Virus record (IMG/VR): IMGVR_UViG_3300045988_183830
Location: 65,888-129,887 of that record
Source: a virus
Reading direction: 5' to 3' (one strand)
Length of the DNA: 64,000 nt
Below, in pieces: positions 22,508 to 63,910 of the stretch (position 1 is the first letter of the stretch; the number at the start of each line of letters is the position of its first letter). The notes beneath the pieces are model-generated. The model worked only from the letters and a program-made list of their open reading frames with translations, did not search any database and had not been told where the DNA came from. The position numbers and the translations under genes were made by a program.

Positions 22508-24805
22508 ATGGAAAGGTCGTGTTCTCACATTAAACTAATACTGGCTGAGAAGAAACAGCTTGGTGATTTGATTGCTCAAGCTATCCCCGGCACGGCACGT
22601 TCCGACCGTGGCGCTACCGTAAAAGGTGAGTATGTCATCGTGTGTTCTCAGGGACACCTATTGTCTTTGAAAGAACCTGAAGATTACGATGCCGCTTTTG
22701 GTAAGTGGGATTTGTCTGCACTGCCCATATACTTTCCCAACTGGCAGACCAAAATCAAAGAATATAATGGCAGGGGAGTGAACCCCAATGAGCGCGTTGC
22801 CCGCATTGGCGAGCTGCTAAAACAGTGTAGCTGTGTTATACACGCTGGCGACCCTGACGAAGAGGGACAGCTCCTTATTGATGAACTGCTTCGCTGGCAT
22901 CACTATCGAGGGCCTGTCTACCGTCTGGCGACAGGTGACACATCCATTCCTGCGTTGCAGCGTGCGCTCAATAACCTCAAAGATAACCGTTCCTTTGAGA
23001 ACATGGGGTGGTCTGCCTATGCCCGCAGCGTTGCGGACCTGATGGTTGGCGTCAATATGAGCCGCTATTATTCTTTGGTCAATAATGCTTCGCTGACGGT
23101 TGGCCGTGTGCAGTCCCCGACGCTGGGGCTCGTGGTAGAGCGTGATAAGCTCATTGAGAACCACGTAAAGACGAAATACTATGAAGTCATGGCAAACACC
23201 TCCGTTGCGGGTAAAGTCATTGAAGCGAAGTACAAGCCAAAGAAGGATGACCCTCATCTGGCCGACGGGCTTATCTTGGATAAGCCTTACGCAGAGAGTA
23301 AGGCTGCGATGGTTGCGGGAAAGCAGTTCTCTGGAGCGACTATCACGAAGAAGGTCTCCAAAGAGCAGCCGCCGCTGCCGTTCGATATGTTGGAATTGCA
23401 GGGCTACTGTCTGAAGAACTTCGGCTATAAGCTGGATGACACAATGGAAATCACACAGTCCTTGCGTGATAACTATAATGCCATTACCTACAACAGAACT
23501 CAGGTGCGCTACCTCCCCGAAAACTACTTTGCGGAAGCACCTGCCACGTCCCGTACTGTCATCGCAAACATCAACACGGTAGGGAAGGGCAACTTCAATC
23601 CCATTCAGGGCATGGACTTCAAGACGAAGGGCCGCTGCTTCGATGACTCTAAAATCGAAGCCCATTTTGGAATCATCCCTCAGAATGTAAGCCTCGACCT
23701 CAATAAGATGACGGAGCGGGAACGGAACGTATATCTTGCAATCTGCAAGTATTACCTTATCCAGTTCTTCCCGCCTGCCGAGAAGGAAACTACAAAGCTG
23801 GCCGTTCCCCTGCCGGACGGCGCCACATTGGAGGCTTCCAGCACTGGCGTCCTGAAGCCCGGTTATCTGGTGATGATGCGCGAGGGTGTTGATACACCTA
23901 CGGCATTGAGTATGATACCTGCCGGCAGCTACGACGCCTTTGTTTCTGATGCTCAGGTTTTGGAGAAGGAGACCAATCCGCCTCCGCGTTATACCCAGTA
24001 CACGCTGGCGAAGGACATGAGCCGTATCGCCAAATATGTGACCGACCCTTTCATCAAAAGCACGCTTCTCAAGAAAGATGCTGACGTGGAGGAGAATAAC
24101 GGTGCCATCGGAACCAGTGCGACCCGCGACCAGATAATCTCCGGACTTATCTCCAGAGGTTTTTTACAGGAAAAAGGGAAGTCCCTTATCTCGACACCTC
24201 TCGGACGCGAGCTGTATCGCATTCTTCCTGACGCTCTTCGTGGTCCTGACCTTACCGCTTTGTGGTGGGTCATTCAGGAAGAGATACATGAGGGGAAGGC
24301 AACACCGGAAAAGCTGGAACAGAACGTTCTCGCTATGCTCAAGGATTTCTTGCAGCAGCCGCATCCGAAAGTTGACCCCAGCATTATCCCGACTCGAAAG
24401 GGCTATACACCGATTGGTGTGTGTCCCCGCTGTGGCGGGAACATCATCGAAGGAAAGATTGGCTTCGGTTGCTCCAACTGGAAAAACGGTTGTAAGTTTA
24501 CCATCTGGAAGAAGCCCAAACCTTCACTGTTCCAGCACATTACCTTTACCGAGAAGGATGTCAAGAACTTTCTCGACGGCAAGCCCGTCCACAAGACGAA
24601 GCTGACCAAGAAGGACGGCGGCACGTTCGCCGCAGACCTCGTGATGGATGATAGCCAGCGCAGCGATTGGGGACCGAACTTCACGCTTCAGTTCAACAAT
24701 ACCAAGCCTGCAGGTACGTCCTCGCGTTCTGGCAGCGGCAGCCGTTCCGGTAGCCGCAGCACATCGCGCAGCAGCTCTCGTGGCCGGCGTTCCGGTCGTA
24801 GGTAA
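22508..24805 (+). CDS. topB: DNA topoisomerase III (type IA; Toprim + topo IA core + C-terminal zinc-ribbon region + Ser/Arg-rich tail)
   Basis: The N-terminus IKLILAEKKQLG is like the topo IA MKLIIAEKPS. The sequence also contains IHAGDPDEEGQLL (Toprim DxD), TVGRVQSPTLGLVVERD, and the Cys clusters CPRCGG and GCSNWKNGC. The RBS is weak. Confidence 0.85.
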   Translation: MERSCSHIKLILAEKKQLGDLIAQAIPGTARSDRGATVKGEYVIVCSQGHLLSLKEPEDYDAAFGKWDLSALPIYFPNWQTKIKEYNGRGVNPNERVARIGELLKQCSCVIHAGDPDEEGQLLIDELLRWHHYRGPVYRLATGDTSIPALQRALNNLKDNRSFENMGWSAYARSVADLMVGVNMSRYYSLVNNASLTVGRVQSPTLGLVVERDKLIENHVKTKYYEVMANTSVAGKVIEAKYKPKKDDPHLADGLILDKPYAESKAAMVAGKQFSGATITKKVSKEQPPLPFDMLELQGYCLKNFGYKLDDTMEITQSLRDNYNAITYNRTQVRYLPENYFAEAPATSRTVIANINTVGKGNFNPIQGMDFKTKGRCFDDSKIEAHFGIIPQNVSLDLNKMTERERNVYLAICKYYLIQFFPPAEKETTKLAVPLPDGATLEASSTGVLKPGYLVMMREGVDTPTALSMIPAGSYDAFVSDAQVLEKETNPPPRYTQYTLAKDMSRIAKYVTDPFIKSTLLKKDADVEENNGAIGTSATRDQIISGLISRGFLQEKGKSLISTPLGRELYRILPDALRGPDLTALWWVIQEEIHEGKATPEKLEQNVLAMLKDFLQQPHPKVDPSIIPTRKGYTPIGVCPRCGGNIIEGKIGFGCSNWKNGCKFTIWKKPKPSLFQHITFTEKDVKNFLDGKPVHKTKLTKKDGGTFAADLVMDDSQRSDWGPNFTLQFNNTKPAGTSSRSGSGSRSGSRSTSRSSSRGRRSGRR

Positions 24806-32779: not shown

Positions 32780-32868
32780 GGAGAGATGGCTGAGTGGTCG
32801 AAAGCACCGGCCTTGAAATCCGGCGATGTCAAAAGCATCCGTGGGTTCGAATCCCACTCTCTCCGCCA
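32780..32868 (+). tRNA. tRNA-Ser (anticodon TGA), type II with long variable arm, CCA encoded
   Basis: GGAGAGATGGCTGAGTGGTCGAAAGCACCGGCCTTGAAATCCGGCGATGTCAAAAGCATCCGTGGGTTCGAATCCCACTCTCTCCGCCA. The 7-bp acceptor stem pairs GGAGAGA with TCTCTCC. The anticodon loop is CTTGAAA and the discriminator base is G. Confidence 0.8.
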
Positions 32869-36348: not shown

Positions 36349-36351
36349 TCA

Positions 36352-36385
36352 AAAGCGGCTCTGCATCTGGCGGAGCCGCTTTTCC
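36352..36385. terminator. terminator after the plus-strand block
   Basis: aaaagcggctctgcatctggcggagccgcttttcc. Confidence 0.65.
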
Positions 36386-36600
36386 ACTTTGTTCACAAAG
36401 TTTTCCACAACATATTGTGTATCTGTTGGTTCTCAACACAATATGCTATATATTTCCATTTCCCGCAAACGTCTGCAGTTTGCAAACGCCAAGAGCAAAA
36501 TGCAAACTATAGTTTGCAAATCTCTTAGTTCAATCCAGTTGCGACTTTGCATCCTTTAGTAGTAAGTTGGTCGCAAGTTAGTTGCAACTTGAAAGTAACA
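36386..36600. other. non-coding palindrome/iteron-rich region between convergent operon ends
   Basis: The region contains a GTTTGCAAAC perfect palindrome, TGCAAACTATAGTTTGCA, gtcgcaagttagttgcaact, and at least 7 TTGCAA-like half-sites in about 110 bp. There is also the inverted repeat cacaacatattgtgt / acacaatatgctat and a DnaA-box-like TTTTCCACA. Confidence 0.4.
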
Positions 36601-36603
36601 TAA

Positions 36604-36640
36604 CAAAAAAAGCACCTCTCTTTCGAGAGGTGCTTTCAGT
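36604..36640 (-). terminator. terminator of the minus-strand operon A
   Basis: aaaaaaagcacctctctttcgagaggtgctttcag. Confidence 0.65.
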
Positions 36641-38005
36641 TTAGAATTTCAGTTGGTCATCAGTTATTTTTGCGATTTGCGGCAGCTTGCGAGCTTCTTC
36701 GGTACGAAGCTGGAACATATCCAACTCATAATTACCGAGCCGCACGCGGTCAAGACCATCGGCATCCTTGAAGATGTCAAAGAGGCTTTTGACGCGCAGC
36801 GCATCTTGCTTATCCAACCAATGTTTCTCGATGAAGTCGTATCCTTCCTTATCGGGGCGGCAGTGATACTCCATCAGAAACAGTGTGATGGGGTCCGTAT
36901 CAGGATATGCTTCCTGCAGCATCTTCGCACTCTCGGCGCCGTGGGTGTTGTCCTCTGAATCACTGCATCTACCTGTGTCATGGTACAGTGCGGCATCAAT
37001 CAAAATCTCCTTGTCTTCCAAGTCCAGACCCTTCATATATGCCAACAGCATACACATGAACAGGACACGGCCAGCATGAGCCTTTCCGTGTAGTTTGCTT
37101 GCCATTTGGAAAGGAACGGCATCATAGTCGGCAGTCCTCTGATAGAGCCAGAAGTCATCTATCGCGCCGTCATCCACGGCCTCATTGAGCCAGTCGATAC
37201 CATAGAAGGGGAAGTCTTCAACCTCCTTGATGTCATCGGGAGATACAATAACTTCAGCCTCCACACCTTCGAAATACTCAATGACAGAGGCTTTTTCGAC
37301 TGTAGCCCGAAATACCTTCGCATTGTCAGACGGGAAGCGTGTGGCGAAGAACACGGCCACGGCAGGGTCCAGCGTCCAAGAGAATGCCTCCTCCAGACTT
37401 GCGCTTTCATCGCCGGCGCCACGGTAGACCGTCAGGGTGTCGGGATACTTCTTGAGTCCCTCCTCCGTTGCCTGAATCTGTTCCGGTGTTTTCATGCTCT
37501 TGAGCTTCAGTATGCCGTCCCGTCCAAGTGCGGAGCATCCGTAATCGGAAAAAGGGTAGACATCATAGAACAGTTTGTAAGCGCCATCAAAACCCTCATC
37601 AACGAGCTTCTTCAGATACTCTATCCGCATCCGGTCGTTGAGTGCCGTGATGATGAAGCTACAGTTGCCTGAAGCAATTTTCTCCTTCAGTTGCTCAACA
37701 GCCCCTCGGATTTCAGGTGTTTTATCCTCGCCGTCGGCTGCCATTGTGAGACTGTGGCAGGGGAATATGACCTTATCCTTATCCCAGTAATAGAACGGGG
37801 TGAAGCCGCAGCCATAGTAGAGGTTTTCAATGATGTCGTCGGTCAGATGAAACTTCTTCCGCAGTTCATCGGCTGTATAGAGCGCCATATAGCCGTTCCG
37901 ACTGGCAATCGCCTTTGCTTTCTCTGATGTGACAGACGCAGCAGGGAGGAGGTTGCTGAACGATTCGACATTGCGGGATTTCATTACCACATCAGCGATG
38001 TTCAA
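36641..38005 (-). CDS. HD-domain phosphohydrolase with an unrecognised N-terminal domain of about 300 aa
   Basis: The HD motifs HGKAHAGRV...AALYHDTGR...DADGLDR are in the C-terminal third. The likely start is the TTG 9 nt after GGAGG. The ORF-track start at 38014 abuts the SD. Confidence 0.6.
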   Translation of the reverse strand: MNIADVVMKSRNVESFSNLLPAASVTSEKAKAIASRNGYMALYTADELRKKFHLTDDIIENLYYGCGFTPFYYWDKDKVIFPCHSLTMAADGEDKTPEIRGAVEQLKEKIASGNCSFIITALNDRMRIEYLKKLVDEGFDGAYKLFYDVYPFSDYGCSALGRDGILKLKSMKTPEQIQATEEGLKKYPDTLTVYRGAGDESASLEEAFSWTLDPAVAVFFATRFPSDNAKVFRATVEKASVIEYFEGVEAEVIVSPDDIKEVEDFPFYGIDWLNEAVDDGAIDDFWLYQRTADYDAVPFQMASKLHGKAHAGRVLFMCMLLAYMKGLDLEDKEILIDAALYHDTGRCSDSEDNTHGAESAKMLQEAYPDTDPITLFLMEYHCRPDKEGYDFIEKHWLDKQDALRVKSLFDIFKDADGLDRVRLGNYELDMFQLRTEEARKLPQIAKITDDQLKF

Positions 38006-38201
38006 ACTTTTCAACCTCCTTCAACAATTTCTCTATCACTTCGGCAGCATCAGCTTCAAGGCTGTTAATGTTGCAGGCACCGTCCACATCTCGGTACTTG
38101 CACCGCTTATCGCCGCAGCCGAAGTTGTCTTCAGCGTCCGTGCCATAGCAACGGAGTCTCTTGACAACTCTCAACGCATCACTTTTCAGCTTGGCTGTCA
38201 T
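37992..38201 (-). CDS. small Cys-containing hypothetical protein (69 aa)
   Basis: RBS aagaaaggagaaagcaca precedes the ATG. Confidence 0.5.
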   Translation of the reverse strand: MTAKLKSDALRVVKRLRCYGTDAEDNFGCGDKRCKYRDVDGACNINSLEADAAEVIEKLLKEVEKFEHR

Positions 38202-38236
38202 TGTGCTTTCTCCTTTCTTGTCTAAATAGACTTTAA

Positions 38237-39283
38237 TCAGGCTCTAACATATCGTGCCTTCTTGGACATTCCGATACGTTTAATGCTCCCTTCCTTCACC
38301 ATGCGTCCAAGCACAGCCTCCACGGTGGACGGGCTTACATCAGGATGAATGGCGCATATCTCCGCTTTGGAAATTGGCATCAGGCTGCCAAGTACCGTAG
38401 CTTCGATTCGCGTCATCTTCGTGATTTTCTTCCCATTGACGACTGCAAACCGCTTATCCAACTCCTTATAGCACTGATACAGTATGGACAAGAAGTTTTG
38501 AATAAATGGCACATAGTCGTTGTTGTTCTCCATCCAGCCCTTCGAGGATTGCTCCAGTGCGTCGTAATAATACGCCTTGTGATGGTTGATTTGTTCCTCG
38601 AAAGAAATGTACTTTCCTACATCGAAGCCGTTTTTGTAGAGCAGCAGAAGTGAGAGCAATCTCGACATTCTGCCGTTACCGTCGCGGAAAGGATGGATAC
38701 ACAGGAAGTCCAAAATAACGCAGGGAATAAGAAGAAGCTGGTTGATATTGGAGTTGGAACAGGCATCCAAATAGGCCAGTTCCAGTTGCTCCATAGTAGC
38801 CGGTGTCTCTGCCGCAGGTGTGGGACGAAACCTCACACGCCGCGTGCCATCCGCCGCGACTTCCAGAATCACATTGTCATCCGTTTTGTACTGCCCACCG
38901 TTCTCGTCGCCTGCGACTGCCATCATGGTTTCATGGAGCCGCAGAATGTCAGGAACGCCGAAAGACAGGTACTCATATCCTGAATGCACAGCGTTGAGTG
39001 CATCTCTGTATCCGGCAATTTCCGCCTCATCATGGTTCAGAGGCGCACTGCTGTGGTTTACGATTTCCGCAATGCGCTTGTCGCTGGTCACAATGCCCTC
39101 AATGGCGTTGGAGCTCTTTACTGACTGAACTCGCGCAATGGATTCCAGTTCAGTGAAGACTTTTCCAAACTCCTGCTTACGGAAGCCGGCTTCAGTACGA
39201 AGAGAGTAGATTTTGCTCGTGATGTTCACAAGGCTTGCAGGAAGCAGCCCGTTATCGAGGAAAGAATAATCAAACTTTCTCAT
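38237..39283 (-). CDS. Fic/DOC family protein
   Basis: The Fic motif is HPFRDGNGRMSRLL. ATG follows the RBS aaaggagctggtgtt. An internal promoter-like TTGATT-17-TATAAT lies at 39308-39336. Confidence 0.75.
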   Translation of the reverse strand: MRKFDYSFLDNGLLPASLVNITSKIYSLRTEAGFRKQEFGKVFTELESIARVQSVKSSNAIEGIVTSDKRIAEIVNHSSAPLNHDEAEIAGYRDALNAVHSGYEYLSFGVPDILRLHETMMAVAGDENGGQYKTDDNVILEVAADGTRRVRFRPTPAAETPATMEQLELAYLDACSNSNINQLLLIPCVILDFLCIHPFRDGNGRMSRLLSLLLLYKNGFDVGKYISFEEQINHHKAYYYDALEQSSKGWMENNNDYVPFIQNFLSILYQCYKELDKRFAVVNGKKITKMTRIEATVLGSLMPISKAEICAIHPDVSPSTVEAVLGRMVKEGSIKRIGMSKKARYVRA

Positions 39284-39358
39284 AACACCAGCTCCTTTCT
39301 GCACATTATTATACATCTTTATATGCAGAAAATCAACTCCTTCCTGCAGCAAATGGGC

Positions 39359-39595
39359 TTAAAGAACAACATCAGCAAGAACTTCCTTGGAAACCGTGTT
39401 GTTCCACATCCGCACACTTTTCCTGATACTGCTGGCATAGATTTTTGTGCCGGCATAGGTCTTCAGGTTTGCGTGGAACGGAAACCCCTTTTTGCAACTC
39501 TGACATACAGCCTTACAATCGGGCTTGCCACAGTGGGAATACAGCTTGATTTTGCCACCACACACGGGGCAGGGAGCAATGTAACCTAAATCCAT
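39359..39595 (-). CDS. Lar-family-like zinc-ribbon protein (possible restriction-alleviation protein)
   Basis: RBS gaaaggagataatact. The zinc ribbon is CPVCGG...CGKPDC...CQSC and the protein is about 79 aa. The resemblance to the Lar family (CPFCGG...WN) comes from recall and is low-confidence. Confidence 0.4.
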   Translation of the reverse strand: MDLGYIAPCPVCGGKIKLYSHCGKPDCKAVCQSCKKGFPFHANLKTYAGTKIYASSIRKSVRMWNNTVSKEVLADVVL

Positions 39596-39649
39596 AGTAT
39601 TATCTCCTTTCAAGAAGAGCCACCCCGAAGGGTGGCTCTTTAGTTGTAG

Positions 39650-41878
39650 TTAGACCTTCAACCGTTTCTTGACGATTTTGACCATTGCCTTGGGGAAGGT
39701 GGACAGGTCAGTAATGTCAAGGAACTGGTCGCCGTAAATCTTCTTGAGGTACGCTTTGTCGTCGCCGATAGCTGCTGCAACAATCTCAACACCGCGCCGG
39801 CGATTGCGGGCTACGATGTCTTTGATGTCCTTCGCCGCAGAATCTCCACCATAGGAATCATCATTCGGCTTGCCATCCGAAATGATAATGAGGAGCTTCG
39901 TGCGCTCAGGTCTCGCATTCAGCAGGTTCGCAACGACCTCCAGAGCTGCACCATCACGGTTACAACCTCCGGTGGAGAGCTTGGCAAGGCGATACTTGTC
40001 ACGCTTACCAGCCTTCAGGAAGTCCGTATAGACGAACAGGTTGACCCTACCATGCATGGTCACGTTGTGGCCGTACACAGCGACAGGAACATGAACACGC
40101 TCTGCATAGTCATGCAGGAGCATGGTGGCCTTCATAGCGGCGCCCATGCGCTGTCCGCACATGGAGCCGGACTGGTCAACGAGAACAGCCACGGCCATGT
40201 CAGGCAGGTCCTGCGGCAGCTTGGTGTCGCTGAAGTACCGGCAGTCGGGACGCCACATATCATTGGCTACGATATCTCTACCGTACATCCGATTTCTGCG
40301 GACATCGCCATCTTGCAGGTCTTTCAGTTCCTGCTGCATCAGCTTCGCCAAACGCTTGGAATACTGTTTCACATCCTCCATCATTTCTCCGTAGAGCTTG
40401 ATGTTTGCGGGTGTTACTTCAACCTCGCGTTTGACGTCGATTTTATGACCCTTGTGCGTGGAGCTGCGGTCCATGATGTCAACATCAGCGATGATTTGGG
40501 ACTTCAAATCCTGTTCCATCTGAGCTTCGGCCATGTCACCGGCAACGGAGGAAATGATGGTCTGCAGGACATTTGCCAACATATTGTCAGCCTGCTCCTG
40601 CTTCTCATTCTTATCCTTTCCATCGCCGTTCTTACCAGCCACAGCAGCGGGAACGTTGCCCTTATTGGCATCATTACCGCCGGAACCGCTGCCGCCCTTT
40701 TTGCCCTTTTTCTTACCAGCAGACTGAGCATCCTTGGTAGCTTGCTTGGCTACGTTGGAAGCCTTCTGGTTCTTGGGTATCTGAGAGCCGCCGCCATTCT
40801 GTGCGCCCTGAGCGATTTGCTGGAGCACCTGCTGAATGGCATTTGCGCTGGGCTGGGAGACACCTCCGCCGCCCTGCTGGTTCTGGCTGTTTTGACCGCC
40901 GCCGGAGTTGCCGCCGGAAGAGGACTGGCCCTGCTGCCCACCCTGACCGTTCTGGTCGGAGCCGGACTGCTGACCTTGCCCCTGCTGGCCTTGGCCTGCC
41001 TGAGCATTCTGCTGCTTGTCACACTTATCTATTGCATCCTTGATGTAAGGCCACATAAAGAGAAGCATCACATTGATTTGAGCATACAGCTCTTTAGGGT
41101 TATCCGTGTTGGTGGCAAGCTCAATGGCCTGTGAGATGTCTGTCAGCTTCTTGGCGTACTCATTGGTATAGAGCGTCTGCTCATCCGCAACGAGAATTTC
41201 ACCGAAGCGTGCGAACTGGAGAACGAGGCTTGTCATGATAGACAGCGGCTCATTCTTGTTATTCGTATAGCCTTCCAGCGTGTGAAGCTGTCCCTGAAGG
41301 GAAGATGCTGCCATCTCAATACCACGTGCAACAATGCCGCCGTAGTAGTCGCTCATACGCTCCTCGTCGTGTGCGTCGATGATGCAGTTGACGAGTTCGT
41401 CCCGCAGCGACTTGAACACCTTGCGGTATTCAGGATGCTTCAGCGCCTCCTTCATCTCATCCAGTTCTGTCTCGTCGTCCGGTTCAGGCATCCGTCCGTA
41501 GAGTGTGCCGTTCTCTTCCAGTTCCTTGTCTGCCAGCGCATCGGCGCGGAAGTCGTGGAATCGGATGTGGGCCAACTCGTGATAGACGATACCCATAACC
41601 GTTGCGAATCGTGAGGAGGGGAGCTTATACCACGTGATGACACTATTCGCCGTATTCTGATAAAGATTATTCCCATCAGTACAGGCGGTGATGTCTGAGT
41701 TTGGGTTATGCATCAGAGAAACGGAGATGTGCTTGTCAAGGTCCTTCGTCATCGAATCGACTGTCGCCTGCACATGACTCCGAAACGCTTCACTGGTGTA
41801 GATGTCAGCATCCGTGAGCTTCTCGCTCATTTCATTAGCACCCACACGGATTTGCCTCCAGATAGATTTCTGGTCCAT
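39650..41878 (-). CDS. protein with an N-terminal HExxH putative metallopeptidase domain, a Gln/Gly/Ser-rich linker and a C-terminal vWA domain (DUF2201-like architecture)
   Basis: RBS gaaaggagaaatgacgc. The HExxH motif is GIVYHELAHIRFHDF. The low-complexity linker is QNAQAGQGQQGQGQQSGSDQNGQGGQQGQSSSGG. The vWA MIDAS motif is VLVDQSGSMCG. Confidence 0.7.
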   Translation of the reverse strand: MDQKSIWRQIRVGANEMSEKLTDADIYTSEAFRSHVQATVDSMTKDLDKHISVSLMHNPNSDITACTDGNNLYQNTANSVITWYKLPSSRFATVMGIVYHELAHIRFHDFRADALADKELEENGTLYGRMPEPDDETELDEMKEALKHPEYRKVFKSLRDELVNCIIDAHDEERMSDYYGGIVARGIEMAASSLQGQLHTLEGYTNNKNEPLSIMTSLVLQFARFGEILVADEQTLYTNEYAKKLTDISQAIELATNTDNPKELYAQINVMLLFMWPYIKDAIDKCDKQQNAQAGQGQQGQGQQSGSDQNGQGGQQGQSSSGGNSGGGQNSQNQQGGGGVSQPSANAIQQVLQQIAQGAQNGGGSQIPKNQKASNVAKQATKDAQSAGKKKGKKGGSGSGGNDANKGNVPAAVAGKNGDGKDKNEKQEQADNMLANVLQTIISSVAGDMAEAQMEQDLKSQIIADVDIMDRSSTHKGHKIDVKREVEVTPANIKLYGEMMEDVKQYSKRLAKLMQQELKDLQDGDVRRNRMYGRDIVANDMWRPDCRYFSDTKLPQDLPDMAVAVLVDQSGSMCGQRMGAAMKATMLLHDYAERVHVPVAVYGHNVTMHGRVNLFVYTDFLKAGKRDKYRLAKLSTGGCNRDGAALEVVANLLNARPERTKLLIIISDGKPNDDSYGGDSAAKDIKDIVARNRRRGVEIVAAAIGDDKAYLKKIYGDQFLDITDLSTFPKAMVKIVKKRLKV

Positions 41879-41899
41879 GCGTCATTTCTCCTTTCTTAT

Positions 41900-42322
41900 T
41901 TACTTGCGCCGGTTCTTGAAAATTTCAACAGTGAATTCAAGGCAGAAATCTGCCACCTGCAATCTATCACTCGAATTTCCTGTAAATACAGGCTCAACAC
42001 CGTTAGCGGCTGCCATTCTGTTGATGATATTACAGGCCTCTGCTGCAGCGTTGTGAACCGCTGTGCGTCCTCTGTCAATGGTCTCTACTGCATCCCTGAG
42101 GTCCTCGCCTTCGAGTCTATTGTGAGCAATGATGATGCGAGTTTCGCTCATATCAACCGTTTTCACATAGTCGAGAAAGGTCTGAGCACAGGTGTTTTCG
42201 ACGAGGTCATGAATTCTCTCAGCGTTAGGAGCATTGTTTTTCAGACCTTCTCCAATCTTGGCGCAAAGTGTCCTGTAGTTCTCGTAGTTAAAGAACTTGG
42301 CGTTCTTGTAGTTATAAGTCAT
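41900..42322 (-). CDS. hypothetical protein (140 aa)
   Basis: ATG follows the RBS agaaaggagaagacc. Confidence 0.5.
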   Translation of the reverse strand: MTYNYKNAKFFNYENYRTLCAKIGEGLKNNAPNAERIHDLVENTCAQTFLDYVKTVDMSETRIIIAHNRLEGEDLRDAVETIDRGRTAVHNAAAEACNIINRMAAANGVEPVFTGNSSDRLQVADFCLEFTVEIFKNRRK

Positions 42323-42399
42323 GGTCTTCTCCTTTCTTACTTTCGGTCCCGAAAGCAAGAAAAGAGGCCCCATGCCTCTCTTCTCCTTTCAGGACAAGC

Positions 42400-44277
42400 C
42401 TATGCCACCTTGCTGATGACCTGCGCCGCATTGGAACGAATCTCGTTCTGCTCGACGGGGTCATTCGTGCATTTGGCGATGAGGCACGTGTCAATGTAAT
42501 CTTCCAAATGAGCCATGTATCTGTCGTCACACTGCACGCAGCAGACGAGAGACTCCAGCTCGCAAATAGTGCAGGAACCTTCCGTGATTTCCTTGTCGGC
42601 GCAGTAGCTCCGAATCTGCTCAAACACGTCGTACAGAGCGTTCAGCGTCTTGTTGTCACGGCTCCAGCCGGTGTTGTACTTGATGCGCTCCAGCATAGCC
42701 TGCTTTTCGATTTCAGTGCTGTCGAAAATCATCCGGCAACGCCGAATAACAGACTGGTCGATGGGGCGGCAGGAAGCATAGCCGACGTTATCCGTGAATA
42801 CCACAACGGCATCCTTCTGACGATAGGTGAAGCCGCCATCCACCAGCGGAATCATAGCACCCGGCAGGTCGTACTGGTTCAGTGCGACCATAACGCCAGA
42901 GTCCTTGATACGGCTGATTTCCTGAATCTCGCAGATGTAACCGCGAGAAACGGCTTTCACGAAAGCGGACTCGACCACCTTCACAGGGGAAGTGCAGCCG
43001 GCGCGGGCAACCAACAGCTCAGAATACTTTGCGAAGCATTCCTCAGATGTGATGCCCGTGCCATCCTCGCCCGTCATGGTCGTCCACGCGGATTCGGGGT
43101 CGAAGGAAATCTCATCGAACGTGGGAAGTTCTCCACGCGCCGCATCCACGGGATTACAGGGGACGAACTCAGAAATCAGGTCCTTCGCCAGCATATCGGT
43201 ATGGCAGGTCAGCTCCAGCCGAGGAGTGTGCAGGATGCACGCCAGAACCTTCGTGCCGGTAGACTTACCGTAACCGGTAATGCCGCGCCACAGGAAGTTG
43301 CGGAAGGGTACGCGCATATTGGACGTAGCGACGATTTTGTCGGCCATCTCGATAACCTCAGGCTGAACCTTGAAGTCATCATCGAAGGTGGGAATCAGCA
43401 GTTCCTCGTCGGGCGTCCACGGGTGTGCGTCAGCCCACGCTGCGTATCTGAGCTTGGCAGCCTTCACGGTCATGCCCTTGGTAGAGCTTGAGGTGCTGTT
43501 GGCGGCCATTGTGCCACCGATGATGGTAGGTGTGCCGACAATGATGGTGCCGTTGAAAGCGCCGTTGTTGACCTTCTGCCGCGTCAACGTATCCATGTTC
43601 CCGTTCTGGACGTTCAGCGGGACTTTGCCCGTCTCACAGCCATAGTAGAACATATCACTGAAGATATACAGATAGTTGAAGGCGGTAGATGCTTCCACCA
43701 TGTGAGCGCCCCAATCAGCGGGGTACTTGGCGCACAGGGCGAGAATCTCGTCACGGACGGTCTTGAGTTCCGAGTTGTCATCCACGACAGCCAACTCCGG
43801 TGCCTCGTAGTAGAGGGACAGGACTTGGGGTGTCATTGCCAGCATAGCGCCGCTGAGGTCGATGTCGTCAGACTCAGAACCGATAGACGGAGTACCCGCC
43901 CACTGGCCGGAAGGCATCGTCACGGCGGCACCCAGTTTACCGACAGAAGGCGCATTGGTCTGGAACACCGTTTTATAGGTGAACAGCAACGTCTTCACGG
44001 TCGTGCCGGTAGAGTTGTCGCGGAACTCAGCGCTCCACAGATTGTCAGAGACCTGCAGCAGAGCATAGTCCTCGACAAAGCCGGGAATACCCAGATATGC
44101 CAGAAATGCTCTGGTTGCATAGGCGTGCAGCGTAGATTGCCCCTTCATAGACGGTCTCTGCGGCGCATTCCACTTGGAGAACGTCGTCGTGCTGCGGTTA
44201 GGCATTTGGTTCAGCCCGAAGGGGAGGGTACTGATGTCGAACCCTTTCTTACTTCTGAAGAGTACACAATTTGCCAT
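42400..44277 (-). CDS. MoxR/AAA_5-like AAA+ ATPase with an N-terminal extension of about 350 aa
   Basis: The true ATG follows the conserved module RBS gggagaaaggagaaaaagacc (ORF track starts 17 codons too early, inside the leader). Walker A is GITGYGKST. The MoxR-like Walker B/sensor segment is YICEIQEISRIKDSGVMVALNQ, followed by VVVFTDN. Confidence 0.7.
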   Translation of the reverse strand: MANCVLFRSKKGFDISTLPFGLNQMPNRSTTTFSKWNAPQRPSMKGQSTLHAYATRAFLAYLGIPGFVEDYALLQVSDNLWSAEFRDNSTGTTVKTLLFTYKTVFQTNAPSVGKLGAAVTMPSGQWAGTPSIGSESDDIDLSGAMLAMTPQVLSLYYEAPELAVVDDNSELKTVRDEILALCAKYPADWGAHMVEASTAFNYLYIFSDMFYYGCETGKVPLNVQNGNMDTLTRQKVNNGAFNGTIIVGTPTIIGGTMAANSTSSSTKGMTVKAAKLRYAAWADAHPWTPDEELLIPTFDDDFKVQPEVIEMADKIVATSNMRVPFRNFLWRGITGYGKSTGTKVLACILHTPRLELTCHTDMLAKDLISEFVPCNPVDAARGELPTFDEISFDPESAWTTMTGEDGTGITSEECFAKYSELLVARAGCTSPVKVVESAFVKAVSRGYICEIQEISRIKDSGVMVALNQYDLPGAMIPLVDGGFTYRQKDAVVVFTDNVGYASCRPIDQSVIRRCRMIFDSTEIEKQAMLERIKYNTGWSRDNKTLNALYDVFEQIRSYCADKEITEGSCTICELESLVCCVQCDDRYMAHLEDYIDTCLIAKCTNDPVEQNEIRSNAAQVISKVA

Positions 44278-44530
44278 GGTCTTTTTCTCCTTTCTCCCAG
44301 CCTGTAATAAGGACTTACGGGAATCCAAAAAATGTTATATATAGAAAAAGACAGTCACTTCCCAGAAAAGGGAAGTAACTGTCTTGATTCTTTGTGGTGA
44401 CTTGAAAACGGAGATAATCTCCTTTATAAAAATAGCTTCGTAATTATAATTCTATACTACCACAGTTTGATATTTTGTCAATCGCTTTTGCTGTAAAAAA
44501 AGAAGCTCCCGAAGGAGCTTCTTTTGAAAA
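44278..44530 (-). promoter_or_regulatory. regulatory module copy 1: terminator, promoter, operator palindrome, leader hairpin and RBS
   Basis: - Terminator: gaagctcccgaaggagcttc at 44495-44530.
- Promoter: minus-strand TTGACA (44476-81), 16-nt spacer, TGGTAGTAT (44454-62).
- Palindrome: GGAGATAATCTCC (44410-22).
- Leader hairpin: gacagtcacttccc...gggaagtaactgtc (44350-83).
- RBS region: conserved 40-nt block ...ggacttacgggaa. Confidence 0.6.
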
Positions 44531-44557
44531 AATGTGGTTTGTCTTGAAGCGAAAGAA

Positions 44558-45610
44558 TCAAAGGATTTTTGCTCGGACGGTATAGGTGAACGGAGCGACA
44601 CCATCATCCGAACTCGCATCCCACACTTCATGGATTTCGTCGATGGGTACACCTGCCACACGACGCCAAGCGACGTCATCGGCGAAACCATCAATCATCG
44701 GAATGTCCTCCAGAAGCGCATCAAGCGCACCGTCTTGGCGCAAGTCAATGTACTTCGGATTGAGCATAACTGCTCCCTCAGAGAGCAGCATACGCGCCCA
44801 GAGCTGGTATTCCAGCGACCAACGGGACGTTTCCGTCGGCAGGTCGCCATACAGCTCATCCAGTTTCCGCAGGATGGAAGCGCAAATCACACAACCTTCA
44901 GGATGTCCGTGATGCGTACCGAGATACGGCAGCTTTGCAAAGAACAGAGGATTCCCAGAATACTCATCTTCCGCATAGGCGTAAAACGTCAGCTTCATGT
45001 CAGCCGCCGCGAAGAACCGGTCAGGAAGGATGTCCTTCACTTTGCAGTTGCTCCAGACGACATCATCCGAAAGGAATCTGAAGCCGAGAGGCTCCGTTCT
45101 TTCCGGTGTGAGGTACTTCCACGCCATATGGCGAACGAGGGCAACGAAACCCAGCTCATGCCGCAGCGTCGGCACATCGTCAAAGATTCTGCGGATGTTT
45201 GCCCGCAGCTTCTCTTCGCTTCGTTCCACGCACTCGAAAAAGAGCTTGCAGGACGACCCGTTCGTGAACACAACGCTCAGTGTCACGAGCCAAGGTGCGA
45301 AATCGTCGGGTTTCAGAATGTAATCTTTCTGCCCAGTGCAGGCGACCGGCACAAACCAACCGCCCGCCTTAGCCTCGTTATACGAAGCGTCTGCCGCAGC
45401 ATAGGCGGTTGTTCTGAAGGCATCGTCGGTGTCCTTATCAGGAATATCAATGGCATCGCCCATGCAAATGTACTTGAAGGGGACGTACATTTCCACCTCT
45501 CTGACGCCGTCGCCATCTGCATCATCCGTATCGTGGCAGTAGCGCACGATGTGGACCAGTACGTTCTCGTCGCAGTGCTGCTTTCGCTTGTTTGAAATCG
45601 GATTATTCAT
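44558..45610 (-). CDS. hypothetical protein, paralog of 45624-46661
   Basis: RBS gaaaggagagcaaac. It shares the blocks FAKLP(D/Y)LG and LEYQLWARMLL(A/S)EGAVMLNPK with the adjacent gene. The overlapping plus-strand ORF 44534-45595 is rejected. Confidence 0.65.
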   Translation of the reverse strand: MNNPISNKRKQHCDENVLVHIVRYCHDTDDADGDGVREVEMYVPFKYICMGDAIDIPDKDTDDAFRTTAYAAADASYNEAKAGGWFVPVACTGQKDYILKPDDFAPWLVTLSVVFTNGSSCKLFFECVERSEEKLRANIRRIFDDVPTLRHELGFVALVRHMAWKYLTPERTEPLGFRFLSDDVVWSNCKVKDILPDRFFAAADMKLTFYAYAEDEYSGNPLFFAKLPYLGTHHGHPEGCVICASILRKLDELYGDLPTETSRWSLEYQLWARMLLSEGAVMLNPKYIDLRQDGALDALLEDIPMIDGFADDVAWRRVAGVPIDEIHEVWDASSDDGVAPFTYTVRAKIL

Positions 45611-45623
45611 GTTTGCTCTCCTT

Positions 45624-46661
45624 TCAGCCCGTCACGATGCAGGTAAACGCCTCATCGCCGGACTCACTCATATCATTCTCCCACGCCTCGGAGATTACGC
45701 TGATGGGTGTTTTGACAGCCTTGGCCCACGCAATACCGTCACCGCTGTCTTTCAGCATTTTATTGCCAAAAGCCAGCGTCTTGAATTCGTAGGTGCAATC
45801 GAAGAGGTCGAGGTGCTTCGGATTCAGCATGACCGCACCTTCTGCCAGCAGCATACGAGCCCAGAGCTGATACTCCAGTGCCCATTTTGCTGTGTCTTCA
45901 GGCAGGTCGCCGTACATCTCGTCCAGCTTCTGCAGCAGTTCTGCGATTGCGGCACGTCCCTCAGGCTTATTGTACCGTTCGCCCAAATCGGGCAGCTTGG
46001 CAAAGAACAGGGGGGATGCCGCATACTCGCCGTCGGAATAGGCGAAGAACGTCAGCTCCATGGCAGGGGGATTGAAGAACTTATCAGAGAGAATGTCCTT
46101 CACACCGCACTGGGCGAAGTTTACGCTGTCCGAAATGAGCCGGAAGCCGAACTGCTCCGTCCACTCACGAGTGAGGTCTCTCTTCGCCATGGCCGCAACC
46201 GTGTCAGAATGCCGCCCGCAGGTGTTTTCCGGCGCCACACGCGGCTCGAATCTCGCCCGCATATTGTTGACGATAGCTTCAGTGTCGTTGAGGACACTTT
46301 CGAAAAGCAGCCGGCAGCCGCGCCACGCTCCTTCGTCGGTGACGGAAAGGCTGATGATGTAGGGGGCAAAATCGGCGGGATGGAGAACCATTACCGTCTT
46401 GCCGCCGTCCTCAGTGACCTTCACAGACCAACCGCACTCGTTCCCGTATCGCTCGTTCTTCTTGAACGAAGCATTTGTGAGAACGGAAAAGTGCAGCTCG
46501 TGACCATCGCTGAAGACGCTCACAGAATCGCTCTTGCGGATGTCCTTGAAAGGAACGAAGGTGGTCTCGAATCTGTCGTACTTAGGGTTGTGGCGGTAGA
46601 CCTTAACCAACGTGTTCTCGTTGCAGAAGGATGCAGCGGCTCTGATAGATGTATTACCCAT
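45624..46661 (-). CDS. hypothetical protein, paralog of 44558-45610
   Basis: ATG follows the RBS aaagaaaggagaaaaatt. The ORF-track start at 46787 runs through the upstream RBS. Confidence 0.6.
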   Translation of the reverse strand: MGNTSIRAAASFCNENTLVKVYRHNPKYDRFETTFVPFKDIRKSDSVSVFSDGHELHFSVLTNASFKKNERYGNECGWSVKVTEDGGKTVMVLHPADFAPYIISLSVTDEGAWRGCRLLFESVLNDTEAIVNNMRARFEPRVAPENTCGRHSDTVAAMAKRDLTREWTEQFGFRLISDSVNFAQCGVKDILSDKFFNPPAMELTFFAYSDGEYAASPLFFAKLPDLGERYNKPEGRAAIAELLQKLDEMYGDLPEDTAKWALEYQLWARMLLAEGAVMLNPKHLDLFDCTYEFKTLAFGNKMLKDSGDGIAWAKAVKTPISVISEAWENDMSESGDEAFTCIVTG

Positions 46662-46695
46662 AATTTTTCTCCTTTCTTTTTGAAAAAAAAACAGC

Positions 46696-46914
46696 TCAGA
46701 TTTTGTCGAAATCATCGACGCCCGGAACGAGCGGCAGCGTGCGTCCATTATCCCAACGCATATGAATCTGGCCGTTATCGTCCACATAAGTGACTTTACC
46801 GGTCGTGCCGTCTGCCACAGGAAACTTGCTTTCGTCCATGTGTTTCAGTCTGATTCTTGTGCCTTCGGGATACTCTGTCCTGATGGATGCGATTTCCGCA
46901 GTGCTGTATGCCAT
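46696..46914 (-). CDS. DUF4314-like small protein
   Basis: RBS gaaaggagaatttcaa. The pattern GTRIRL..M.D...PV..GTTGKVTYVDDNGQIHMRWDNGRTLPLVPGVDDF matches my recall of DUF4314, which is common on Firmicutes conjugative elements. The match was not checked against a database. Confidence 0.45.
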   Translation of the reverse strand: MAYSTAEIASIRTEYPEGTRIRLKHMDESKFPVADGTTGKVTYVDDNGQIHMRWDNGRTLPLVPGVDDFDKI

Positions 46915-49869: not shown

Positions 49870-50092
49870 GGTGTTTCTCCTTTCTTTGTTGTCGAAAAAT
49901 GCAATAAATATATAAAAAAAGACAGCTATCCCTGAAATGGGATAACTGTCTGAATTTACGTATGGTGACTTGGAAAACGGAGATAATCTCCTTTATAAAA
50001 ATAGCTTCGTAATTATAATTCTATACTACCACAGTTTGATATTTTGTCAATGATTCTGTGGGTAAAAAAAAGAAGCCCTTTCGGGCCTCTTT
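49870..50092 (-). promoter_or_regulatory. regulatory module copy 2
   Basis: - Terminator: aagaagccctttcgggcctcttt at 50064-92.
- Promoter: TTGACA (50045-50), 16-nt spacer, TGGTAGTAT (50023-31).
- Palindrome: GGAGATAATCTCC (49979-91).
- Leader hairpin: gacagctatccc...gggataactgtc (49921-50).
- The RBS-proximal block is diverged. Confidence 0.6.
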
Positions 50093-50318: not shown

Positions 50319-51029
50319 TCACAGACTTCCTTTCGGTTTGATTTTCGGCGCATACATATCTTTGCCCTGCTTTTCGTAGAAAAGCGTCTGCGTCTTGTTC
50401 GTCCCATCCGGTCTGATATTCTGATACGAAGGATGCTTTGGAAAAGCTGCCATTAGTTTTCTGAACCGCGCCACCGCCTCTGAAGGCTTGCATTTTGCGG
50501 CCACATAGTAGTTCAACGGACTGGCCTGCCCGAATGTCATAACTTCGGAATGGGGACGCTTCATCATCTCGATGACCTCGTCCGTGAAAGCCCCACGGAT
50601 TGAATCCGGTGTCTTGGTTCCATCCTCGTTGGCATAGGCTTCCAGATTCATCTTATCGAATCGAATGAGAGGGTCGATGATATGCTTGCCATCTACGACG
50701 ATGAAGCTGTGGTGGGTAGGGACGGCATCGCCTACGAAGAGCCAGCCGGCATACGGAACGGCGTTCTTCACGCCTGCGGCAACCAGAGCGTCCAGAATGC
50801 GCTGGGTGTTCTGATAGCAGTAGCCGACATCGACCTCCGTGGCATCGAAGGCCTGTCGAATGGTGTCGGTCTCTACACCTGAGGGAAATGGAAGTGTGTT
50901 GCCGTAGCTAAACACTTCCATTGTCCCCGTCAGCGGATACATCTGTGAAGGTATCTTAATAGGCTTTTCGCTGAATGACGGGTTGATGTAGATAGCATGA
51001 GAGCGTAATACCTCAAGGCTACTTGTCAT
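50319..51029 (-). CDS. hypothetical protein
   Basis: The ORF is long and overlaps the stop codon of the zeta-like gene. Confidence 0.5.
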   Translation of the reverse strand: MTSSLEVLRSHAIYINPSFSEKPIKIPSQMYPLTGTMEVFSYGNTLPFPSGVETDTIRQAFDATEVDVGYCYQNTQRILDALVAAGVKNAVPYAGWLFVGDAVPTHHSFIVVDGKHIIDPLIRFDKMNLEAYANEDGTKTPDSIRGAFTDEVIEMMKRPHSEVMTFGQASPLNYYVAAKCKPSEAVARFRKLMAAFPKHPSYQNIRPDGTNKTQTLFYEKQGKDMYAPKIKPKGSL

Positions 51030-51699
51030 TTCTATCTACGTCCTCCTCAGTCTCAGTAGCACTATTAAGTGAATTACAGAGCTTCTTCTCATAGTCGGAA
51101 AGCAGAAGTTCTCCAACATTATTGCTTTTGATGCCTACGAGGTCACAGATTTCCTGTTTGCTCCAGAAAGCATTTTCCCTGCATTTATAGGTGTCGCCAT
51201 GTGCCTTCTTGAATATTCTATCCGTTGAAGAGCCGGAGTTGTCATAAATATGGCAGATGTCGCATAGGTCAACAAAGGCCTGAACCCTTGCCAAAGACTT
51301 TTCGTACCGAGACCGAATCTTTTCTTCAGGTACGTCGTGGCCTCCAGATTGAACACGTTCCCAAACACGAAGTACGTTTACGGATGCGTCTTTCGTAAGA
51401 ACGAAAAAGCCTTTTATGAAATACCCATGCTCTTTTGCATATTTTAGAAATTCCAGTTTTTTATTCGTGGACAAAACTGTCTCGAAGGTAAAATCTTCGC
51501 CCCATTCTACACACTGTAAGCGCATTGCATCAGCCTTCTGTGCCGCTTCCAAATCGCTGCATCCAGTTTCTTTTTTGATGTCGTCTGCGTTGATATACGG
51601 GGGTAGTATATCTACTCTACTTGTAAGTGAGCTTTTACCTGACCCGTTAGGCCCAGCGAAAACGATAATGCAAGGTTTCCGCTGTTTCTCATTTGACAT
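51019..51699 (-). CDS. zeta-toxin/AAA_33-like P-loop kinase
   Basis: Walker A is IIVFAGPNGSGKSS. ATG follows gggagaatcgagt. The alternative start is 51714. Confidence 0.55.
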   Translation of the reverse strand: MSNEKQRKPCIIVFAGPNGSGKSSLTSRVDILPPYINADDIKKETGCSDLEAAQKADAMRLQCVEWGEDFTFETVLSTNKKLEFLKYAKEHGYFIKGFFVLTKDASVNVLRVWERVQSGGHDVPEEKIRSRYEKSLARVQAFVDLCDICHIYDNSGSSTDRIFKKAHGDTYKCRENAFWSKQEICDLVGIKSNNVGELLLSDYEKKLCNSLNSATETEEDVDRNDK

Positions 51700-51904
51700 A
51701 CTCGATTCTCCCATCCGGATACAGTAAATAGGCACACTTTTTCTCTGCATCATAGCGAGCAACAGGAATACCTTTCATTTTTGCCCGTTGATAGGCTTCA
51801 AAGGCTACCGACGAAATCCGACGGTCCATTTCCGCATCCTCTTCGTCACAGTGAGGGTCTTCATATAGGCAAGTTTTGGATACGCCCTTTACGAATTCTT
51901 CCAT
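51689..51904 (-). CDS. small protein upstream of the zeta-like gene (possible antitoxin partner)
   Basis: RBS aaaggaggatacaact. Its position immediately 5' of the toxin-like gene is the basis for the inference. Confidence 0.4.
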   Translation of the reverse strand: MEEFVKGVSKTCLYEDPHCDEEDAEMDRRISSVAFEAYQRAKMKGIPVARYDAEKKCAYLLYPDGRIEYVK

Positions 51905-55008: not shown

Positions 55009-55250
55009 TTGTTTCTCCTTTCTCCCAGCCTTGAAGGACTTACGGGAACACAAAAATGTATGTATATATATAAAAAAAGACAGCCATCCCAAGATTGGGA
55101 TAACTGTCTTGATTCTTTATGGTGACTTGAAAACGGAGATAATCTCCTTTATAAAAATAGCTTCGTAATTATAATTCTATACTACCACAGTTTGATATTT
55201 TGTCAACGTTTTCAGATAAAGAAAAAGCTCCCCGAAGGGAGCTTTTTTCA
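55009..55250 (-). promoter_or_regulatory. regulatory module copy 3
   Basis: - Terminator: aaagctccccgaagggagcttttttc at 55222-50.
- Promoter: TTGACA (55201-06), 16-nt spacer, TGGTAGTAT (55179-87).
- Palindrome: GGAGATAATCTCC (55135-47).
- Leader hairpin: gacagccatccc...gggataactgtc (55079-108).
- RBS region: conserved block ...ggacttacgggaa. Confidence 0.6.
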
Positions 55251-63897: not shown

Positions 63898-63910
63898 AAA
63901 TTGTGGTAAT

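Follow-up and report, generated by a model that had tools for sequence, protein, structure and literature searches.

Pairs of a MoxR-class AAA+ ATPase and a protein with a von Willebrand factor A (vWA) domain are familiar as maturation factors, the classical examples being NorQ–NorD, CbbQ–CbbO and RavA–ViaA. Related two-gene modules of mobile elements, known as cobST-like, occur in hundreds of phage genomes and have received two conflicting published interpretations. Iyer et al. described a jumbo-phage MoxR ATPase with a metallopeptidase–vWA partner and proposed a chaperone pair for virion assembly (PMC7824862), whereas Liu et al. interpreted viral cobST, which they reported in the cyanophage core genome, as the motor of a cobaltochelatase that takes over the CobN of the host, and called the ‘peptidase’ a mis-annotation (PMC8651126). 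A non-exhaustive literature search found no experimental test of either reading. In addition, a MoxR–vWA core is part of the vWA–MoxR–VMAP ternary nucleoside triphosphate (NTP)-dependent conflict systems (Kaur et al. 2020, PMC7159879), and a phage MoxR ATPase is needed to overcome the DS-28 defence system (preprint 10.1101/2025.11.20.689424). Here, we analyse a stretch of 64,000 nucleotides (the window hereafter; positions 65,888 to 129,887 of IMG/VR record IMGVR_UViG_3300045988_183830), whose list of open reading frames (ORFs) shows seven co-directional, tightly spaced ORFs on the minus strand at 36641–44530. Our comparison with related loci indicates that this operon is built around a two-gene core, a predicted MoxR-class ATPase and an HExxH–vWA partner. 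With a probability of roughly 0.6, the core is an ATP-driven machine that would remodel and cleave a client protein in the service of element establishment or replication, and the downstream genes are cargo. The core is a diverged branch of the cobST-like MoxR–vWA modules of phages and phage-plasmids, and its carrier is a plasmid-like element or integrative and conjugative element (ICE)-like element of gut Clostridia.

The distribution of the genes across related loci carries this conclusion. A protein search for relatives yielded 19 clusters, all metagenomic, whose neighbourhoods were obtained by contig look-ups, and pattern scans yielded 24 loci in GTDB genomes and 18 in IMG/VR. We then compared 19 window proteins with 53 loci in a tblastn matrix and clustered the neighbours all against all. 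Repeating the homologue search from the vWA alignment brought back in essence the same set of 12 proteins, probably because the low-complexity linker dominated it, and the phage and plasmid collections contained no megablast match to the region. Every related locus with enough downstream sequence (49/49) has the ATPase and vWA genes side by side. Loci with the core pair span Oscillospiraceae, Lachnospiraceae and Eubacterium genomes as well as IMG/VR contigs, with 32–100% identity for the ATPase and identities as low as 27% for the vWA protein. By comparison, the DUF3232 gene that lies between them is restricted to relatives of at least 67% identity, the Lar-like, 69-aa (amino acid) and HD genes are restricted to relatives of at least 85% identity, and the Fic gene occurs only in near-identical contigs and not in the 85% clade. 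None of the ~30 diverged loci contains the Fic, Lar-like, 69-aa or HD gene. In blastn alignments with the 85% clade, window positions 38219–39274 (1.06 kb, almost exactly the Fic ORF) stand out as a clean indel. The operon of L011, a relative at 67% identity, consists of ATPase, DUF3232 and vWA genes followed directly by a canonical terminator; the entire Lar-like-to-HD block is missing, and homology to the window stops at 39635. Neighbour clustering of the loci revealed no third gene conserved with the pair family-wide, and no client, structural or effector gene conserved beside it. The distribution across loci, the Fic indel and L011 together resolve the operon into a two-gene core with lineage-specific cargo stacked behind it.

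The seven genes of the operon are as follows.

42400–44277, minus strand: predicted MoxR-class AAA+ ATPase, 625 aa from the ATG at 44277, with a GGAG-type ribosome-binding site (RBS)
41900–42322, minus strand: DUF3232 protein, 140 aa, encoded between the two core genes
39650–41878, minus strand: HExxH–vWA partner, 742 aa
39359–39595, minus strand: zinc-ribbon protein (CxxC...CxxC), Lar-like below threshold, 78 aa
38237–39283, minus strand: Fic protein, predicted class II, 348 aa
37992–38201, minus strand: Cys-rich ORF of 69 aa, its reading frame overlapping the start of the HD gene
36641–38005, minus strand: HD protein, 454 aa

Independent gene calls on near-identical contigs concur with these lengths (625, 140, 742, 78, 348, 69 and 454 aa); for the ATPase, a longer ORF of 642 aa begins at a TTG upstream of the ATG. 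By sequence comparison, the four genes 3′ of the vWA gene are shown to be lineage-specific cargo at a junction of convergent transcription, and each of them probably acts alone. In the window, this junction (36349–39649) holds the Lar-like, Fic, 69-aa and HD genes together with three small plus-strand ORFs. Because the corresponding junction of L011 (4700–6300) holds a HEPN/nucleotidyltransferase pair and a 204-aa ORF instead, the region downstream of the vWA gene reads as a variable cargo site.

A preliminary description of the operon, made from the sequence alone, had listed these seven genes and the motifs GITGYGKST, EIQEISR, HELAH, DQSGS and HPFRDGNGR, all of which are in the sequence, and its domain calls (MoxR-like ATPase, HExxH plus vWA, Fic, HD and zinc ribbon) are upheld. 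In searches with hidden Markov models, VWA, CobT_C, Fic, DUF3232 and, narrowly, HD passed their cut-offs, but AAA_5 and Lar_restr_allev stayed below theirs and the DUF2201 models found no match. The unrecognised N-terminal extension of the ATPase is likewise present, although it measures nearer 290–300 aa than the ~350 aa given there.

Residues 1 to ~290 of the ATPase form a family-specific N-terminal domain, which has no Pfam match at E ≤ 1 and is confidently predicted to consist of beta-sheet and helical structure (AlphaFold2 (AF2) model, mean predicted local distance difference test score 82.5), and the AAA+ module occupies residues ~300–625. Pfam AAA_5 reaches 19.7 bits against a cut-off of 22 and aligns with just the Walker B-to-lid half, and a PDB profile match to CbbQ (2e-4) lies over the Walker A region. 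In the fold comparison, the AAA+ fold is closest to MoxR-class structures, which settles the MoxR assignment despite the AAA_5 score below cut-off; on its modelled fold, the protein is thus placed with the MoxR-class AAA+ ATPases, in the CbbQ/NorQ group. The Walker A residues G337-K338-S339-T340, the sensor-1 residue N497 and R512/R513 are invariant among homologues. In the Walker B segment (residues 448–456, Y-I-C-E-I-Q-E), the Asp position is occupied by an invariant Gln (Q452), which is unusual for a MoxR ATPase, and the flanking E450 and E453 are likewise invariant (19/19 homologues). In four Oscillospiraceae relatives, a ~65-aa ORF with the motif VIDG..F.S.d.A..YLv..GM stands immediately upstream of the ATPase gene and sometimes overlaps it (L010 9791–9997, L012 9668–9865, L015 9696–9893 and L016 9645–9851). 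This ORF is absent from the window and may be an extra component.

The partner is composed of an N-terminal zincin-like domain (~25–293), a disordered Q/G/S/N-rich linker (~294–558, ~260 aa) and a C-terminal vWA domain. The vWA domain matches Pfam VWA (3e-10) and CobT_C (3e-12), both above cut-off, and PDB profiles of CobT (2e-14) and NorD (1e-11). The residues of its MIDAS motif (metal ion-dependent adhesion site), D568-x-S570-G-S572, D642 and D668, are invariant, and the domain is assigned by these matches to the CobT/NorD type. In the AF2 model of the N-terminal domain, H100-E101-x-x-H104 lies on a predicted helix (87–108) preceded by beta strands, and N164, D168 and E172 lie on a second predicted helix (149–179), so that an HExxH on a helix and downstream third-ligand candidate residues are present, as in zincin metallopeptidases. 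A profile of this domain found 938 clusters (50% identity, E ≤ 1e-3) among 1.84 billion representatives, nearly always at the N-terminus of proteins of 650–850 aa, and the six residues of the HExxH...N..D..E pattern are 98–100% conserved in the best 149 representatives (50%-identity clusters). The near-invariant HExxH motif argues for real catalysis, and against ‘peptidase’ as a mis-annotation. The domain itself has no Pfam model, no PDB relative and no peptidase family by sequence, and fold searches with the partner returned vWA matches only. On an Enterococcus plasmid, a single coding sequence matches both the ATPase and the vWA protein, which supports physical cooperation between the two.

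Several comparisons place this core among the cobST-like modules, which are carried by cyanophages, ICP2, SSU5-type phage-plasmids, Rhizobium and Gordonia phages, haloarchaeal viruses and group 2.2 jumbo phages. Foldseek against viral models gave full-length alignments to ‘CobT-like’ or VWFA proteins of 570–860 aa from haloarchaeal viruses, Gordonia phages, Lactococcus phage KSY1 and uncultured phages. The vWA part was found by tblastn in ICP2, Rhizobium, Roseobacter and Bacteroides phages, and ICP2 gp40 and RHph_X66 CobT have HExxH and N..D/E..E motifs of their own. By hhalign, the N-terminal domain of the partner matched the CobT-like protein of Rhizobium phage RHph_X66 with 92.6% probability (E = 4.5e-7); its comparison with ICP2 gp40 gave a weak match. 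CobS-like ATPases are present in 503 phage records, mostly of cyanophages, and BLASTP of the window ATPase against phage CobS-like ATPases gave no match. In ICP2, RHph_X66 and SSU5, a cobT-like gene precedes the gene for a cobS-like MoxR ATPase, and primase, Rep or DNA polymerase genes adjoin; this placement hints at a replication-linked role for the whole superfamily. In the same three genomes, which belong to unrelated phages, the cobT/cobS-like genes stand close upstream of the replicative DNA polymerase gene (L054 4837–7683, L055 3510–7249 and L059 3519–7197, respectively). The combination had been held at first to match no system that could be named; its core can now be named as a diverged phage/phage-plasmid cobST-like pair (PMC7824862; PMC8651126).

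These observations suggest how the module may work. The ATPase would form a hexameric ring and dock the vWA protein, the MIDAS site of which would capture an acidic residue of a putative client protein, and ATP hydrolysis would remodel this client, by analogy with the MoxR–vWA pairs NorQ–NorD, CbbQ–CbbO and CobS–CobT. The tethered HExxH domain would probably cleave the client, a prediction drawn from the near-perfect conservation of its motif. The placement of the pair in phages and plasmids leads to the weaker inference that the module probably helps the element to establish itself or to replicate by processing a host or element protein; neutralisation of a host defence protein is one possibility. 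A bolder extension, which we regard as speculative and rather unlikely, is that the cobST module of phages, phage-plasmids and Clostridial elements is in general neither a cobalt chelatase nor a virion chaperone but a two-component, ATP-driven capture-and-cleave machine that destroys or reprograms a host protein during establishment. Incoming mobile DNA would deploy it against, for example, a host defence or replication-control factor; gripped at the MIDAS site, such a client would be unfolded by the MoxR ring and then cut by the tethered zincin domain. If so, the Clostridial branch would be the first plasmid- or ICE-borne version of such a machine, and the N-terminal domain of the ATPase would specify the client.

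Several points weigh against a client-remodelling and cleaving machine of the element. The client, the proteolysis and the ATPase activity are all putative, and the Gln in the Walker B segment may make the nucleotide chemistry unusual. The link to phage CobS is weak, with just 11.7% hhalign probability for the ATPase against RHph_X66 CobS. The anti-defence MoxR ATPase of Bas54 serves as a precedent only, its kinship with the window ATPase being putative, and Bas54 is not evident among the listed CobS-like matches in phages. Co-transcription of the cargo with the core could reflect functional coupling in this particular lineage. Finally, chromosomal copies of the pair that are linked to a DUF4116 gene, described below, are left unexplained by a role purely in mobile-element establishment.

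The accessory and cargo genes differ in how well they can be assigned. The DUF3232 protein (Pfam DUF3232, 3.5e-17; PDB 2rdc, an ‘uncharacterized protein’, 6e-7) reads, from its distribution, as the product of a clade-specific accessory gene of the core. The zinc-ribbon protein reaches 18.3 bits with Pfam Lar_restr_allev (cut-off 28.6) and matches PHROG 599 ‘Lar-like’ with E = 5e-6. The Fic protein matches Pfam Fic (2e-15), the PADLOC SoFic model over its full length (1e-34) and PDB 8uqu (1e-65). Its catalytic motif HPFRDGNGRMSR fits HxFx(D/E)GNGRxxR, its N-terminal SNAIEG fits the inhibitory-helix motif (S/T)xxxE(G/N), and a C-terminal domain is also present; the NCBIfam SoFic equivalog gives 36.8 bits, far under its cut-off of 550. 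The protein is predicted to be a class II, SoFic-like, self-contained and autoinhibited AMPylase, and would most simply be a recently acquired abortive-infection toxin of SoFic type. A promoter of its own had been suggested for the Fic gene; the promoter-like site at 39336–39308 does exist, but it is also kept in the Fic-less 85% clade, upstream of the 69-aa and HD genes.

The 69-aa protein has no family match in Pfam, PADLOC, NCBIfam or PHROG, and its gene accompanies the HD gene in Fic-less relatives. Translational coupling of the 69-aa and HD genes is probable, as the frame of the former extends over the first codons of the latter. The 69-aa ORF is an unlikely candidate for an AS1-like anti-Fic antitoxin (PMC12249575), since it shares this overlap with the HD gene and stays with that gene in relatives that have no Fic. 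The HD protein passes the Pfam HD cut-off narrowly (23.6 bits against 22; 6.5e-5), with the domain at its C-terminus, and residues H306, H342-D343, H381 and D414 are conserved in homologues. Residues 183–265 are matched by PHROG 4776, and full-length homologues are stand-alone genes on Bacillota megaplasmids. The middle domain of the protein (YRG...SWT...EAE) was considered as an R-S-E ADP-ribosyltransferase and rejected, its Arg and ExE not being conserved and no family or PDB match being obtained.

The transcription signals of the operon are as follows.

44278–44560, minus strand: promoter and leader module, comprising the terminator of the preceding operon, promoter, leader, hairpin and RBS
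44481–44454, minus strand: operon promoter TTGACA-16-(TG)TAGTAT with a near-consensus extended −10, following the terminator of the preceding operon
44385–44348, minus strand: strong terminator-like hairpin with a U-run in the 5′ leader
39614–39641, minus strand: 11-bp GC-rich hairpin, closed by a TTCG loop and lacking a U-tract, directly 3′ of the vWA stop codon
39308–39336, minus strand: promoter-like TTGATT-17-TATAAT between the zinc-ribbon and Fic genes
36608–36637, minus strand: intrinsic terminator that ends the unit where it meets the convergent plus-strand operon

The seven genes make up one transcription unit, composite rather than a single system, and the hairpin at 39614–39641 marks the 3′ boundary of the conserved cassette before the four downstream genes. 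The leader of ~75 nt is invariant, and the operon leader has a folding z-score of −4.1. The promoter/leader module is repeated five times on the minus strand of the window (44278–44560, 49908–50076, 55012–55248, 60036–60256 and 63654–63907; 83–86% identity). Each copy of ~250 nt consists of an invariant TTGACA-16-TGgTAGTAT, the invariant leader, a 13–16-bp hairpin with a U-run and an RBS. The hairpin is maintained between copies by compensatory changes, and copies of the module are also found in related contigs. An Rfam search of the repeated leader gave sub-threshold terminator-like matches only. Since five copies of the module with a maintained hairpin are present, at least five operons, including this one, seem to be under common control of an attenuation or antitermination type.

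Near-identical IMG/VR contigs measure 181–192 kb. In Oscillospiraceae relatives, which have four backbone genes in common with the window, the pair adjoins genes for Rep3, a Toprim/DUF3854 protein, TrbC-type pilins of a type IV secretion system (T4SS) and a VirB6-like protein, and PcfJ and DUF4314 also belong to this context. The T4SS genes are seen in the relatives only, not within the 64-kb window. Some relatives sit within scaffolds of 0.4–1 Mb and are therefore probably integrated elements. No phage structural protein was found in PHROG and Pfam scans of ~40 other window proteins, most of which had no match at all. Among contigs filed as viral in IMG/VR, L050–L052 have T4SS pilin, VirB6-like and Toprim/DUF3854 genes adjoining the pair; their ‘viral’ label, and probably that of the ~190-kb element of the window too, is not to be trusted at face value. 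A further set of relatives, from Lachnospiraceae and Eubacterium, has chromosomal-looking neighbourhoods. In these, a gene for a protein of ~250 aa with DUF4116 repeats is a conserved third gene downstream of the vWA gene (L021, L023–L027, L029, L030 and L032).

Elsewhere in the window, two giant surface proteins are encoded on the plus strand (80–10915, 3611 aa; 12672–18365, 1897 aa). A thioester domain at the N-terminus, followed by many repeats of T-Q ester and SpaA type, gives both of them the make-up typical of Gram-positive covalent adhesins, and they may serve in mating-pair or host attachment. Tandem paralogues (44558–45610, 350 aa; 45624–46787, 387 aa) lie directly upstream of the operon on the minus strand; they have a C-terminal block in common (PLFFAKLP...LEYQLWARMLL...GAVMLNPK) and no Pfam or PHROG match. 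A tRNA-Ser gene (anticodon UGA; 32780–32868, plus strand) stands between a flotillin gene and a 132-aa ORF. The window also encodes an NS-type nuclease, topoisomerase III (22508–24805), a DUF4314 protein (46696–46914), a Zeta-toxin-like kinase (51019–51762) and a DUF4942 protein (60306–62318).

Four other explanations of the locus were weighed against the client-processing core. The model of the preliminary description, an integrated defence or anti-defence system of seven genes with the MoxR–vWA pair as sensor or regulator and Fic and HD proteins as its effectors, is very improbable. Conserved co-occurrence holds for the ATPase–vWA pair only and fails for the rest past near-identical elements, at 85% for Fic and at 67% for the other cargo. 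In its favour, effectors are commonly Fic or HD enzymes, one strong promoter and one terminal terminator enclose a tight, co-directional gene set, transcription could plausibly read through the hairpin behind the vWA gene given its missing U-tract, and the Fic protein matches the SoFic defence model. However, the L011 operon terminates right after the vWA gene, HD homologues stand alone elsewhere, the predicted class II Fic enzyme is self-contained and brings an inhibitory helix of its own, cargo genes are preceded by a promoter-like site apart from the operon promoter, and the ATPase and vWA protein have no PADLOC match. What survives of the conflict flavour first ascribed to the operon is the mobile-element setting, which makes a conflict-related role reasonable, and the SoFic match; the pairing of Fic and HD as effectors of one system does not. 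A narrower version, in which the pair with DUF4116 or other third genes is a host-protective defence module on mobile elements and in chromosomal islets, is improbable, though less so than the seven-gene system. It would account for the pair occurring both on mobile elements and as small chromosomal insertions, the neighbours in the window and L011 include toxin types (the SoFic-like Fic, HEPN/nucleotidyltransferase and a Zeta-like protein), and described conflict systems have MoxR–vWA cores (PMC7159879). Again, PADLOC gave no match and no effector is conserved with the pair, and the homologous module is widespread in lytic phages, including the cyanophage core genome (PMC8651126), so that a function benefiting the element fits better than host defence.

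Alternatively, in line with the classical maturation factors, the pair might be an assembly chaperone and maturation protease for the T4SS or pili, for the giant thioester adhesins or, if the element is a phage-plasmid, for the virion, which we hold to be unlikely but more credible than a defence module. The 3611-aa and 1897-aa adhesins of the window would be candidate clients, and the Oscillospiraceae relatives have the pair at the head of the T4SS cluster. For the jumbo-phage pair, Iyer et al. proposed virion assembly together with proteolytic processing, and a MoxR–vWA requirement in tail assembly of Acidianus two-tailed virus (ATV) is cited in the same work (PMC7824862); ATV ORF892 is among our Foldseek matches. 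Yet the pair lies in replication, not structural, modules of isolated phages, neither T4SS nor adhesin genes neighbour the chromosomal copies of Lachnospiraceae, the window proteins that were scanned include no detected phage structural protein, and no structural partner is conserved across loci. The last explanation, that the pair is a genuine CobS/CobT cobaltochelatase motor hijacking host CobN for cobalamin as an auxiliary metabolic gene, follows the role proposed by Liu et al. for viral cobST clusters (PMC8651126) and is the least credible of all. The vWA domain is closest to CobT_C, and PHROG annotates ‘aerobic cobaltochelatase CobT subunit’. The CobT equivalog failed, the profile of the N-terminal domain misses solved full-length CobT, and the HExxH is invariant although a chelatase adaptor does not need it. 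Moreover, the hosts are anaerobic Clostridia, which use the early-insertion CbiK/CbiX route and are not known to use CobNST. A cobalamin-pathway context was looked for, and no CobN or cobalamin gene was found among the window proteins scanned, the recorded Pfam families of related contigs or the clustered neighbour families.

The locus extends the range of a widespread module. To the phage carriers it adds gut Clostridia, which are strict anaerobes and have the module on plasmid- or ICE-like elements and in chromosomal islets; neither the cobalamin-supply nor the virion-chaperone reading fits easily there. The locus also delimits a minimal unit for experiments, made up of two genes, with DUF3232 as an optional addition and with promoter and leader defined, and cautions that co-transcribed ‘effector-like’ neighbours can be recent cargo rather than parts of a system.

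Finally, we compared the locus with the described systems that it resembles. Likeness to SoFic concerns the Fic gene only, in its PADLOC model, its catalytic and inhibitory motifs and PDB 8uqu; by comparison, the NCBIfam equivalog missed it, and the downstream 69-aa gene is probably not an AS1-type antitoxin. The DUF2201_N/DUF2201 proteins are analogous to the partner, having a metallopeptidase-like N-terminal domain and a vWA-like C-terminal domain beside a MoxR ATPase. Membership of the partner in DUF2201 was rejected, with no Pfam match at E ≤ 1 and an hhalign probability of 2.7% against bona fide DUF2201 proteins, over a generic vWA region only. An unrelated MoxR and DUF2201_N/DUF2201 pair stands five genes from relatives of the window pair in L028–L030 (1000–4500). 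With the VMAP ternary systems, of which the pair had been taken to be the core, the locus shares a MoxR ATPase and a vWA protein. This identification is not sustained, as no conserved third gene, VMAP component or effector domain accompanies the pair (the VMAP models themselves were not searched), and neither the ATPase nor the vWA protein matched PADLOC.

Likeness to CobS–CobT lies in the vWA domain, which falls in the CobT_C family, and in the long low-complexity linker that CobT has too. The systems differ in that the curated CobT equivalog TIGR01651 (NCBIfam) gives 21.1 bits against a cut-off of 759, and that the N-terminal domain is unrelated by sequence, its profile failing to retrieve any CobT chain from the PDB at E ≤ 10 even though the full-length protein (9uka) was included; the CobN gene and cobalamin context are also lacking. 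NorQ–NorD and CbbQ–CbbO provide the best structural matches for both proteins and have the logic of an ATPase and a vWA–MIDAS partner in common with the window pair. Nitric oxide reductase and Rubisco, which are the clients of those pairs, are encoded beside them, whereas no client gene is conserved beside the window pair family. To our knowledge, the NorD and CbbO partners have no HExxH domain.

The closest relatives remain the cobST-like modules, from which the window pair differs in several respects. The order of the genes is ATPase then vWA, the reverse of ICP2, RHph_X66 and SSU5. The ATPase has an extra N-terminal domain of ~290 aa and is too diverged for the AAA_5 threshold or for a convincing alignment with phage CobS, and the linker of the partner is Q/G/S-rich rather than acidic. 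In the window clade, a DUF3232 gene is inserted between the pair, and the hosts are anaerobic Clostridia, with plasmid- or ICE-like carriers that have T4SS genes. Common to both are a two-gene module on mobile elements, an association with replication or early regions, and a partner protein made of an HExxH N-terminal domain, a low-complexity linker and a vWA domain of CobT_C type.

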